Shown here piece after piece: positions 24,001 to 27,000 of a stretch of DNA of 64,000 nucleotides. Source of the DNA: Escherichia coli (GTDB taxonomy: Bacteria; Pseudomonadota; Gammaproteobacteria; Enterobacterales; Enterobacteriaceae). Where the stretch lies: NCBI RefSeq assembly GCF_965641715.1, contig NZ_OZ282453.1; one strand, written 5' to 3'. Numbering within the stretch: the stretch's first letter is position 1; every line of letters starts with the position of its first letter. A program made the position numbers.

Positions 24001-27000
24001 GTGTCGCCAGAGTGCCGCGATGAAACGGGTATTGGCGGTATATGGAGTTAAAAGATGACCATCTACATCACTGAGCTAATAACAGGCCTGCTGGTAATCG
24101 CAGGCCTTTTTATTTGGGGGAGAGGGAAGTCATGAAAAAACTAACCTTTGAAATTCGATCTCCAGCACATCAGCAAAACGCTATTCACGCGGTACAGCAA
24201 ATTCTTCCAGACCCAACCAAACCAATCGTAGTAACCATTCAGGAACGCAACCGCAGCTTAGACCAGAATCGAAAGCTTTGGGCTTGCCTTGGTGACGTCT
24301 CTCGTCAGGTTGAATGGCATGGTCGCTGGCTGGATGCAGAAAGCTGGAAGTGTGTGTTTACCGCAGCATTAAAGCAGCAGGATGTTGTTCCTAACCTTGC
24401 CGGGAATGGCTTTGTGGTAATAGGCCAGTCAACCAGCAGGATGCGTGTAAGCGAATTTGCGGAGCTATTAGAGCTTATACAGGCATTCGGTACAGAGCGT
24501 GGCGTTAAGTGGTCAGACGAAGCGCGACTGGCTCTCGAATGGAAAGCGCGATGGGGAGACAGGGCAGCATGAGACGACAGCGACGAAGTTTCACCGACAT
24601 CATCTGCGAAAACTGCAAATACCTTCCAACGAAACGCTCCAGAAATAAACGCAAGCCAATCCCAAAAGAATCTGACGTAAAAACCTTCAACTACACGGCT
24701 CACCTGTGGGATATCCGGTGGCTAAGACATCGTGCGAGGAAAACAAGGTGATTGACCAAAATCGAAGTTACGAACAAGAAAGCGTCGAGCGAGCTTTAAC
24801 GTGCGCTAACTGCGGTCAGAAGCTGCATGTGCTGGAAGTTCACGTGTGTGAGCACTGCTGCGCAGAGCTGATGAGCGATTCGAATAGCTCGATGCACGAG
24901 GAAGAAGATGATGGCTAAACCAGCGCGAAGACGATGTAAAAACGATGAATGTCGGGAATGGTTTCACCCTGCATTCGCTAATCAGTGGTGGTGCTCTCCA
25001 GAGTGTGGAACCAAGATAGCACTCGAACGACGAAGCAAAGAACGCGAAAAAGCGGAAAAGGCAGCAGAGAAGAAACGACGACGAGAGGAGCAGAAACAGA
25101 AAGATAAACTTAAGATTCGAAAACTCGCCTTAAAGCCCCGCAGTTACTGGATTAAACAAGCCCAACAAGCCGTAAACGCCTTCATCAGAGAAAGAGACCG
25201 CGACTTACCATGTATCTCGTGCGGAACGCTCACGTCTGCTCAGTGGGATGCCGGGCATTACCGGACAACTGCTGCGGCGCCTCAACTCCGATTTGATGAA
25301 CGCAATATTCACAAGCAATGCGTGGTGTGCAACCAACATAAAAGCGGAAATCTCGTTCCGTATCGCGTCGAACTGATTAACCGCATCGGGCAGGAAGCAG
25401 TAGACGAAATCGAATCAAACCATAACCGCCATCGCTGGACTGTCGAAGAGTGCAGGGCCATCAAGGCGGAGTACCAACAGAAACTCAAAGACCTGCGAAA
25501 TAGCAGAAGTGAGGCCGCATGACGTTCTCAGTAAAAATCATTCCAGATAACAAGGGAGAAGGCGCATGGGCATAAGAGAACTAAACCTCACCAAAGAGCA
25601 GCACGAGTGGCTGAATGGCTGGCTTGAACTGTGGGGAGCATGGGTTTATTCAGGTCGTCTGGAAAAGCGCATGAGCAGCGTAATAGCTAAGTTCATGGAG
25701 AGCGTAGAGCCGGGAAGAGTTATGACAAGGCCAATGTGTAATGATGATGATGGAATGTTGATTTCTCAGGTCGTCGATTCCGTCATGTACATTGACAAGA
25801 AAGCCTTTGGCATCCTCCTCAGCTACTACGCTCATGGTTCATCTAAGCGAGCAATTGCATCCTACTATCACGCGACTGCAAAGCCACGCAAGATGTGTGG
25901 ACGTGGTGGCGAGGGATGGAGAAAACCTTCACTGGCAACCTGTAGAAACGAAATTGACGACATCCTGAAAGCGTCGTTATTTGTTTTGTACCAGCCAATG
26001 CAAAATGCTTTCAAAATGCGTAAACGTGTTGAGAAAGTTAAGCATGTTGCTGTTAAAAGCCTTGACATGCAATTAGCCATTTAGCCATAATTAGCAGGTA
26101 AGCTGCCGTTAATGACTCTTAAGTTGCAACGGTGGCTTTTTTATTTGGGTCAGTCGTATAAAGGTCATTACGGAAGGCTGTTAACCTTCTTATCGTGGTT
26201 CGAGTCCACGCTGTCCCGCCAAATATACTGGTTTAGCTCCAATGGTAGAGCAGTCGCCTTGTAAGCGAATGGGTAGCGGTTCAAGTCCGTTAACCAGCAC
26301 CATAACTGAGCCGTAGCCACTGGCTATCCTGAATTCATCAGTGATAGTTATGCTGCGGCCTTCTACACATGACCTTCGTGAAAGCGGGTGGCAGGAGGTT
26401 GCGCTAACAACCTCATGCCGTTTTGCCCGTGCATATCGGTCACGAACAAATCTGATTACTAAACACAGTAGCCTGGATTTGTTCTATCAGTAATCGACCT
26501 TATTCCTAATTAAATAGAGCAAATCCCCTTATTGGGGGTAAGACATGAAGATGCCAGAAAAACATGACCTGTTAGCCGCCATTCTCGCGGCAAAGGAACA
26601 AGGCATCGGGGCAATCCTTGCGTTTGCAATGGCGTACCTTCGCGGAAGATATAATGGCGGTGCGTTTACAAAAACAGTAATCGACGCAACGATGTGCGCC
26701 ATTATCGCCTGGTTCATTCGTGACCTTCTCGACTTCGCCGGATTAAGTAGCAATCTCGCTTATATAACGAGCGTGTTCATCGGCTACATCGGTACTGACT
26801 CGATTGGTTCGCTTATCAAACGCTTCGCTGCTAAAAAAGCCGGAGTAGAAGATGGTGGAAATCAATAATCAACGTAAGGCGTTCCTCGATATGCTGGCGT
26901 GGTCAGAGGGAACTGATAACGGACGTCAGAAAACCAGAAATCATGGTTATGACGTCATTGTTGGCGGAGAGCTATTCACTGATTACTCAGATCACCCTCG

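Follow-up and report, generated by a model that had tools for sequence, protein, structure and literature searches.

A known phage 21-type tRNA-Asn/tRNA-Thr pair behind Q in an Escherichia coli prophage, with a probable counter-defence tRNA-Thr in a rare allelic form

A stretch of 64,000 nucleotides from Escherichia coli (contig NZ_OZ282453.1 of RefSeq assembly GCF_965641715.1; here termed the window) contains a lambdoid prophage in which two tRNA genes, one for tRNA-Asn(GUU), the other for tRNA-Thr(UGU), are located in tandem between the late antiterminator gene Q and the holin gene. The two are genuine phage tRNA genes of the Asn-Thr family found in phages 21 and Sf6. The explanation which best accounts for them, and which as a whole is probably correct, is that both would be transcribed late in a Q-dependent manner, that the tRNA-Thr belongs to a type resistant to the nuclease P2-OLD, that the tRNA-Asn may have a similar role, and that the window copy of tRNA-Thr, which starts with A instead of G, is a weakened one. 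The pair is already known: its annotation, now present in many genomes, goes back to the 1990s-2000s, and the function of the tRNA-Thr was published in 2025. For phage biology the finding as such is not new, and the point specific to the window is the rare G1-to-A allele.

Results

The two genes belong to the Asn-Thr family of phages 21 and Sf6

ARAGORN called a tRNA-Asn (gtt) and a tRNA-Thr (tgt), and both matched the Rfam family RF00005 with 55.3 bits each against a gathering score of 29 (E ~3e-9; model positions 1-71 of 71), thus scoring as bacterial elongator tRNAs. The module consists of:

26147-26221, + strand: tRNA-Asn(GUU), 75 nt, encoded CCA, G73; non-pairs U4.U69 and U13.U22; anticodon arm GAAGG-CUGUUAA-CCUUC
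26222-26226, + strand: inter-tRNA spacer of 5 nt, AAUAU (AACAU in phage 21 and Sf6)
26227-26302, + strand: tRNA-Thr(UGU), 76 nt, encoded CCA, A73; anticodon arm GUCGC-CUUGUAA-GCGAA (U28/A42, G27.A43)

An earlier examination of the sequence alone (the sequence-only reading) had folded two cloverleaves of 75 and 76 nt with anticodons GUU and UGU, canonical T-loops and encoded CCA ends, and had placed them between Q (25566-26084) and the holin gene (26545-26868). All of this was borne out, the positions by the Pfam families Phage_antitermQ and Phage_holin_3_1 and the cloverleaves by ARAGORN and by the covariance-model check that the reading itself had proposed. The T-loops are UUCGAGU (Asn) and UUCAAGU (Thr). 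Also the two acceptor-stem mismatches it described, U4.U69 in tRNA-Asn and A1.C72 in tRNA-Thr, are real. Further non-canonical features are U13.U22 in the D-stem of tRNA-Asn, G27.A43 at the top of the anticodon stem of tRNA-Thr and, in the latter, C14 in place of A14. Neither gene thus combines an acceptor stem fully paired by Watson-Crick or wobble pairs with U8-A14, owing to U4.U69 in tRNA-Asn and to A1.C72 and C14 in tRNA-Thr.

The pair is identical to that of phage 21 (AJ237660.1) and of Sf6 at 154 of 156 nt, the differences being the spacer base (T in the window, C there) and position 1 of tRNA-Thr. While tRNA-Asn is 100% identical across the window, phage 21, Sf6, ST64T and JLK-2012, tRNA-Thr shares 75 of 76 nt with 'tRNA-Thr21' of phage 21, which has G1 where the window has A1. 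The window and the phage 21/Sf6 pair also have in common the site after Q/pR'/tR', the anticodons, the 5-nt spacing, and U4.U69, U13.U22, C14, G27.A43 and U28-A42, whereas the structural genes of the prophage differ. By its position 3' of the pR' leader terminator, after Q and before the lysis genes, its near-identity and its anticodons, the pair is therefore a phage 21-type module. As only two of 156 nt differ from the phage 21/Sf6 pair and compensatory substitutions occur in both cloverleaves (see below), the match far exceeds what could be expected by chance.

The comparison with other lambdoid phages suggested by the sequence-only reading returned the same arrangement: Asn(GUU) and Thr(UGU) genes in tandem behind Q have been listed for SfI, Sf6, ST64T, PS3 and phage 21 (PMC3636060), the complete phage 21 genome has 2 tRNA genes (PMC9119081), and the Sf6 record labels both tRNAs 'similar to phage 21', with pR', qut and tR' also annotated. 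P22, at first considered as a further carrier, was dropped, as the phage L paper states that P22 is without tRNA genes.

tRNA-Thr has the features of a P2-OLD-resistant replacement tRNA

P2-OLD, a Toprim nuclease, is the effector of the classical P2-lambda interference and becomes active in response to lambda Gam (Govande et al., NAR 2025, PMC12445682). Killing results from cleavage of the host tRNA thrU behind the C in paired CNG motifs (positions 28-30 and 40-42), and cells are rescued by phage genes for tRNA-Thr(UGU), which stand in for thrU and restore decoding of ACA (PMC12445682). In the same study, tRNA-Thr21 of phage 21 was explicitly tested: it protected against P2-OLD, was almost completely resistant at Site 1, and was described as having 'a shorter anticodon stem' plus the substitutions C28U/G42A. 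Additional host thrU protected little or not at all in cases where phage tRNA-Thr was protective (PMC12445682). In the host, thrU is a single-copy gene and the reader of ACA.

The tRNA-Thr of the window agrees with this resistant class in its sequence features. While host thrU has a five-pair anticodon stem with CNG on both strands (ACUGA-CUUGUAA-UCAGU; positions 28-30 CUG, positions 40-42 CAG), the corresponding positions in the window tRNA-Thr read UCG and CGA. The UGU anticodon and A37 are retained (loop CUUGUAA), and G27.A43, unpaired in 17 of 17 haplotypes, shortens the stem to 4 bp. The prophage also encodes the trigger of the nuclease:

17967-18263, - strand: Gam, 98-aa GamS form (Pfam PF06064 Gam, 216.8 bits, 98 of 98 positions)

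Only the GamS frame is intact; the N-terminal extension of long Gam is found in a separate open reading frame of 50 aa in another frame (18232-18384, - strand), which suggests a frameshift relative to lambda gam. The reading frames adjoining gam are presumably Bet (261 aa, 17176-17961) and Exo (225 aa, 16502-17179), by size, position and the appearance of their sequences. Gam is an inhibitor of RecBCD and the trigger of P2-OLD (trigger role, PMC12445682).

Based on the published rescue (PMC12445682), the matching U28/A42/G27.A43 and the prophage-encoded Gam, the tRNA-Thr family is a counter-defence replacement tRNA, as shown for the plasmid-expressed G1 allele; we infer the same for native expression and for A1. 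The tRNA-Thr would serve as a nuclease-resistant replacement for host thrU, the primary P2-OLD target, once Gam expression activates OLD. Its resistance would reside in the anticodon arm, where C28U/G42A removes the paired CNG motif and G27.A43 shortens the stem.

tRNA-Asn may be a second counter-defence tRNA

Host tRNA-Asn(GUU) is also cut by P2-OLD, more slowly than thrU (PMC12445682), and it is a biologically relevant target of AriB, the nuclease of PARIS, together with tRNA-Thr(UGU) and tRNA-Lys(UUU) (PMC12409363). AriB cuts at U36-A-A-U39-C40|N41; cleavage is lost when U39 is exchanged for A and is impaired by A41-to-C and by U16-to-C (PMC12409363). Host asnT (GCGGA/UCCGU) has CNG on both strands and U39, whereas the window tRNA-Asn (GAAGG/CCUUC) has neither motif (AAG/CUU, C39) and carries A16. 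The window tRNA-Thr has G39, G41 and A16. The positions of the AriB site read UAAGCG in tRNA-Thr and UAACCU in tRNA-Asn, with A16 in both, which makes the pair compatible in sequence with the AriB-resistant class of T5. The identity set of asparaginyl-tRNA synthetase (set from PMC9976931), G73 together with G34, U35, U36 and A37, is complete in tRNA-Asn. The anticodons of the pair represent two of the three main AriB targets and, at the same time, the primary OLD target plus one of several further OLD-cut tRNAs, so that tRNA-Asn corresponds to a secondary target of two Toprim nucleases while lacking their recognition motifs.

The most likely role of tRNA-Asn, although given somewhat less than even chances, would be the same as that of tRNA-Thr, acting for a second-tier target of OLD and PARIS AriB; added supply of Asn and ACA decoding would be a compatible secondary benefit, as the phage exceeds its host in the use of both. 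The host has four tRNA-Asn genes, which weakens a simple argument from Asn supply. Going further, the pair may form a two-tRNA counter-defence cassette against Toprim anticodon-stem nucleases, with a cleavage-resistant tRNA-Asn whose sequence, including U4.U69, was selected for this role; this is put forward tentatively, at somewhat less than even chances. The authors of the SfI study noted that the tRNA-Asn's significance 'is not clear' (PMC3636060), and no literature was found that links the lambdoid tRNA-Asn to PARIS or OLD or that reports on AriB cleavage of the lambdoid tRNAs.

The pair is a mobile module under selection as tRNAs

The pair was found in 360 of 5,426 complete E. coli genomes (~6.6%), and IMG/VR holds at least 120 contigs with it. 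When 105 of the IMG/VR loci were compared, homology of the tRNAs extended to all, that of the Q/pR' flank to 57 and that of the lambda S flank to 57. AST215, the E. coli genome closest to the window in the module region, has the same module inside a quite different P22-like prophage. By these comparisons the Asn/Thr pair is a mobile module.

Across the same 105 loci, nucleotide diversity was 0.008 for tRNA-Asn and 0.015 for tRNA-Thr (unconditioned part), compared to 0.022 for third codon positions of S and 0.040, five times the value of tRNA-Asn, for the adjacent non-coding leader. The tRNA-Asn of the Klebsiella phage ST16-OXA48phi5.2 differs from that of the window at seven positions, six of which form three compensatory pairs (6-67, 7-66, 28-42), and its tRNA-Thr differs from that of phage 21 at four positions, all within two compensatory pairs (3-70, 6-67). 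Counted over all distinct haplotypes, four pairs in tRNA-Asn and three in tRNA-Thr were changed on both sides (slid-partner controls, 0-1). The low diversity, the compensatory differences in Klebsiella and the two-sided pair counts indicate that both genes are under purifying and compensatory selection as tRNAs.

In JLK-2012 and ST64T, tRNA-Thr varies while tRNA-Asn stays identical. JLK-2012 carries a chimeric tRNA-Thr (locus 781-856) with 5' 26 nt of the phage 21 type, a host thrU-like remainder and an anticodon stem of 3 bp, and in ST64T a 72-nt segment replaces tRNA-Thr (locus 781-852); ARAGORN called neither. In the genome of phage L, which is near-identical to that of ST64T, the second tRNA was read as Leu(UAA) (phage L paper). 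These changes of the second gene look like turnover under nuclease pressure. JLK-2012 has an additional Gly(UCC) (locus 860-934), and Klebsiella lambdoid phages have an enlarged cassette downstream of Q, with the order Asn(GUU)-Phe(GAA)-Thr(UGU)-Arg(UCU) (ST16-OXA48phi5.2, locus 701-1020).

The two acceptor-stem mismatches are not equivalent

The sequence-only reading had treated both mismatches alike, which did not hold. The U4.U69 position lacks a pair in 17 of 19 Asn haplotypes, and the Klebsiella homologue keeps the mismatch despite the rebuilt pairs 6-67 and 7-66. As seen from the alignments, U4.U69, U13.U22, G27.A43 and C14 are fixed features of the family; since U4.U69 and C14 are family-wide and tRNA-Thr21 works, both are compatible with function. 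A1.C72, in contrast, is by the same comparisons a rare, derived and lineage-specific G-to-A allele of the phage 21 sequence. It occurred in 1 of 17 Thr haplotypes, in 3 of 119 IMG/VR loci plus AST215 and, among 366 E. coli records, in 5 exact matches to an 80-nt probe and 7 matches at >=99%; its share of copies is ~1.5-2.5%. The NCBI Prokaryotic Genome Annotation Pipeline (PGAP) annotated a tRNA-Thr in none of the five A1 exact-match genomes, which have tRNA-Asn only, but in all 55 listed G1 genomes. Annotation pipelines drop the A1 allele, and surveys of phage tRNAs will therefore undercount such variants.

Compared to G1, A1 lowers the Rfam score from 61.5 to 55.3 bits (-6.2). The ViennaRNA cloverleaf energy changes from -23.1 to -19.1 kcal/mol, a loss of 4 kcal/mol, the minimum-energy fold of A1 turns non-cloverleaf and the occupancy of the acceptor stem falls from 0.85 to 0.02, in a type of in-silico folding that ignores tertiary contacts and modifications. 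The identity set of bacterial threonyl-tRNA synthetase (ThrRS) is headed by G1-C72 (PMC9976931 Table 1), which is present in phage 21, in Sf6 and in 16 of 17 haplotypes and is replaced by A1.C72 in the window. The remaining set is intact (C2-G71, G4-C69, G5-C68, G35, U36; acceptor strands ACUGGUU/AACCAGC), and its G34 is U34 in the window tRNA-Thr as it is in host thrU.

The G1-to-A exchange would hence break the ThrRS identity pair and destabilize the acceptor stem, and in its A1 form the counter-defence tRNA-Thr of the window is probably weakened. At least three phage backgrounds, with flanks differing by 3-6%, carry the allele; because of this persistence in diverged backgrounds a hypomorph is favoured over simple decay, and a reduced function appears more likely than a dead gene.

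The pair is located at the 5' end of the late operon

The flanks of the module are composed of the following features:

25566-26084, + strand: late antiterminator Q, phage-21 type (Pfam PF06530 Phage_antitermQ, 90.3 bits)
26062-26091, + strand: late promoter pR' (TTGACA, 18 nt, CATAAT; 11 of 12 consensus matches), overlapping the 3' end of Q
26097-26146, + strand: leader RNA comprising the qut region and the intrinsic terminator tR' (hairpin at 26100-26138, followed by UUUUUUAUUU), which stops one base before tRNA-Asn
26303-26544, + strand: untranslated late leader of 242 nt, lambda-like, separating the tRNAs from S, with a mosaic boundary at ACTGAGCCGTAGCC (26305), by alignment
26545-26868, + strand: holin S of the lambda family, first protein-coding late gene after the tRNAs (Pfam PF05106, Phage_holin_3_1, 105.3 bits; PGAP 'phage holin, lambda family')

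In AST215, PGAP places an 'antiterminator Q family protein' at exactly this position, and gene 59 of Sf6 is described as 'similar to phage 21 Q'. The pR' bases are annotated as 'nearly identical to phage 21 late promoter' in the Sf6 record and as 'pQ promoter' in that of phage 21. The coordinates of leader, qut and tR' were transferred by offset; the leader is given as tR' plus qut in Sf6 and as a 50-nt terminated 'aRNA' (misc_RNA), ending where tRNA-Asn starts, in phage 21, and its tR' fold reaches -15.7 kcal/mol (z = -2.3). 'Boundary sequences' are annotated in the records of Sf6 and CUS-3, and the downstream junction to a lambda-type S/R/Rz cassette resembles that of Sf6. The holin gene is followed by endolysin and spanin genes.

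A consensus scan of 25600-26900 identified no promoter-like site besides pR' that could drive the tRNAs, the sole other match on the + strand (25722-25751, 9 of 12) being inside Q and upstream of pR'. Expression of the tRNAs should therefore depend on Q or on read-through of tR'. As members of the 5' end of the late operon they would be transcribed upon Q antitermination, with low-level read-through of the terminator being probable, and their release from the late transcript would fall to RNase P and the 3' processing enzymes of the host, as is to be expected for tRNAs in general and in view of tRNA-mRNA operons of the host such as thrU-tyrU-glyT-thrT-tufB. The authors of the phage L study stated that the expression route of these tRNAs is unknown (phage L paper).

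In the wider surroundings, the cIII thermoregulator RNA of lambda (18570-18628, - strand; Rfam RF01804, 88.5 bits) shows an early-left operon of the lambda type. A tRNA-Arg(CCU) gene (56801-56875, - strand; 63.4 bits) adjoins a tyrosine integrase gene (55482-56675, - strand), similar to the tRNA-Arg/IntS junction in AST215; this junction is probably the attachment site of the prophage, which would then probably extend over ~12.6-56.8 kb and, like Sf6-like phages, have the integrase at one end and the excisionase at the other. The chromosomal flank on the left encodes an autotransporter of 2,639 aa (3762-11681, + strand) with ESPR signal, passenger repeats, autochaperone and beta-domain, and of atypical codon usage.

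Discussion

The pair shares its logic with tRNAs of virulent phages, namely a phage copy of the targeted isoacceptor with anticodon-stem substitutions at the recognition site of the nuclease. Examples are T5 tRNA-Lys, tRNA-Thr and tRNA-Asn against PARIS AriB, T5 tRNA-Tyr against retron Eco7, and coliphage tRNA-Thr6 against P2-OLD. These virulent-phage sets are early tRNA clusters, whereas the window pair consists of two tRNAs, without tRNA-Lys, in the late operon of a temperate phage. T5 tRNA-Thr resembles the window tRNA-Thr in the 5' stem strand (GUUGC, window GUCGC), in G39 and in having a stem mismatch. Shared ancestry with the T5 tRNA-Asn and tRNA-Thr was considered and rejected: the overall identity is 62-66%, no higher than to the host tRNAs, and only the anticodon arm of tRNA-Thr is similar.

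The slot between Q/pR' and the first late genes is also used by Stx-converting lambdoid phages, which carry the ileZ-argN-argO cluster downstream of Q. Those tRNAs decode the rare codons AUA and AGA/AGG and have classically been explained by codon supply; their isoacceptors are unlike those of the window pair. In CUS-3, 611R6, HK75 and PDP110P1, thus outside the window, Q/pR'/tR' and the pre-S leader flank a different non-coding cassette in the slot that corresponds to 26147-26304. This cassette, never annotated, is present in 340 of 5,426 E. coli genomes. Its 3' ~130 nt (vB_EcoP-611R6 locus 781-912) fold into a tRNA-like, multi-arm structure that is closed by a 9-bp stem and contains a tRNA-Thr21-like D-arm, a long arm, a 7-nt loop on a 5-bp stem and a canonical T-arm, and 8 of 36 pairs were compensatory across phages of E. 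coli, Salmonella and Pantoea (including CUS-3, Pantoea PdC23, Skate and Akira). No Rfam family matched this RNA apart from a partial tmRNA match of 20 bits, and ARAGORN made no call; it may represent a new family of structured RNAs. In Skate and Akira, a tRNA gene is located ~100 nt downstream of it.

The sequence-only reading had left three options, and the first, functional phage tRNAs, is right for the family given the rescue by tRNA-Thr21 (PMC12445682) and the selection on both genes. For the family as a whole neither loss of fold or identity nor relaxed constraint was observed, and the second option, pseudo-tRNAs, is left only for the Thr allele of the window, which would then be inactivated by the G1-to-A exchange, with tRNA-Asn as the only functional gene. 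This has considerable weight, although it falls somewhat short of an even chance. The G1-C72 determinant for ThrRS is abolished, the predicted minimum fold is no cloverleaf and has hardly any acceptor stem, PGAP skips the gene in all five exact-match genomes, the allele is rare, and relatives such as ST64T and JLK-2012 have a decayed or replaced second tRNA. Yet the A1 tRNA-Thr still scores 55.3 bits against a threshold of 29 and is called by ARAGORN, its remaining identity elements and resistance features are intact, its occurrence in several backgrounds speaks for persistence rather than recent decay, and the folding predictions omit tertiary contacts and modifications. The third option, that the tRNA-like structures mainly serve as processing signals at which RNase P and RNase E cuts would free the pR' leader and set the 5' end and stability of the late mRNA, is very improbable. 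The tRNAs do abut the terminator and precede an untranslated leader of 242 nt, tRNA-mRNA co-transcripts exist in the host, other phages hold a different tRNA-like RNA in the same slot, and the expression route has been called unknown in the phage L paper. However, synthetase identity sets, anticodon loops and encoded CCA ends are conserved, tRNA-Thr21 demonstrably decodes ACA (PMC12445682), and lambda and many relatives express their late genes without a tRNA at this position. A processing element is thus neither needed nor supported, though the tRNAs must be cut from the late transcript.

A purely translational role, in which the tRNAs would supply decoders of rare ACA and of the Asn codons abundant in virion proteins for the burst of late proteins without any function in defence, is unlikely as the sole explanation here. 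ACA accounts for 22.9% of the Thr codons in the prophage and for 12.3% in K-12 (44 annotated core genes; odds ratio 2.1, p = 1e-7), and Asn codons are ~1.4-fold more frequent (48.0 vs 33.8 per 1000, p = 1e-8). Genes flanking the AST215 prophage had also been considered as host reference; their ACA/Thr share of 0.23 equalled the prophage value, and as the set was dominated by csc, fimbrial and efflux genes it was replaced. In addition, thrU is single-copy, the tRNAs are co-transcribed with the late genes, and supplementation was proposed for SfI, with the same ACA bias (PMC3636060), and for phage L, whose capsid gene has AAC for 24 of its 25 Asn codons (phage L paper). But the late genes on the shared transcript have the lowest ACA share of the prophage (17.8% vs 33.9% for non-late genes, p = 3e-5), host genes that were horizontally acquired or are weakly expressed reach an equal share to the prophage (23%) without a tRNA of their own, and the host already has four tRNA-Asn genes. 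Supply also leaves unexplained the conserved unusual arm (G27.A43, U28-A42), which matches the experimental determinants of OLD resistance, and an additional host thrU was barely protective where the phage tRNA-Thr was (PMC12445682). Codon supply is therefore treated as a secondary and non-exclusive benefit.

Several observations weigh against the counter-defence explanation. The rescue by tRNA-Thr21 was obtained from a plasmid promoter and not from the native site behind tR', and protection from OLD toxicity was partial only, with small colonies (PMC12445682). Gam and OLD act early while Q-dependent expression of the tRNAs is late, and in a real infection it may come too late. There is also an early need for ACA: in the gene of an O-like replication initiator (22129-23073, + strand) 11 of 19 Thr codons are ACA, and Q itself has one. 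As this share is far above that of the rest of the prophage, the early, essential O-like gene would be especially sensitive to loss of tRNA-Thr(UGU). Both OLD and AriB also cut tRNA-Lys(UUU), which this phage does not supply, and T5 tRNA-Lys was needed for escape from PARIS (PMC12409363). With respect to tRNA-Asn, CNG is restored on both strands in the Klebsiella-phage sequence (CAG/CUG), unlike what a strict anti-OLD role would require, and the absence of U39 is expected by chance in ~3/4 of unrelated tRNAs. The spread of A1 over several backgrounds indicates that the allele may be tolerated better than the folding model implies, and the number of ACA codons per 1000 (13.1 in the prophage, 6.4 in K-12) fits codon supply.

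If the counter-defence explanation is true for both genes, it would account for the joint occurrence of Asn(GUU) and Thr(UGU) in lambdoid phages and for their recurrence in T5, and it would answer the question on the tRNA-Asn raised in the SfI study. The allele in the window is a natural G1-to-A variant of a characterized counter-defence tRNA and as such a ready test of ThrRS identity and acceptor-stem stability, and it may be an example of an anti-defence gene that decays in a lysogen.

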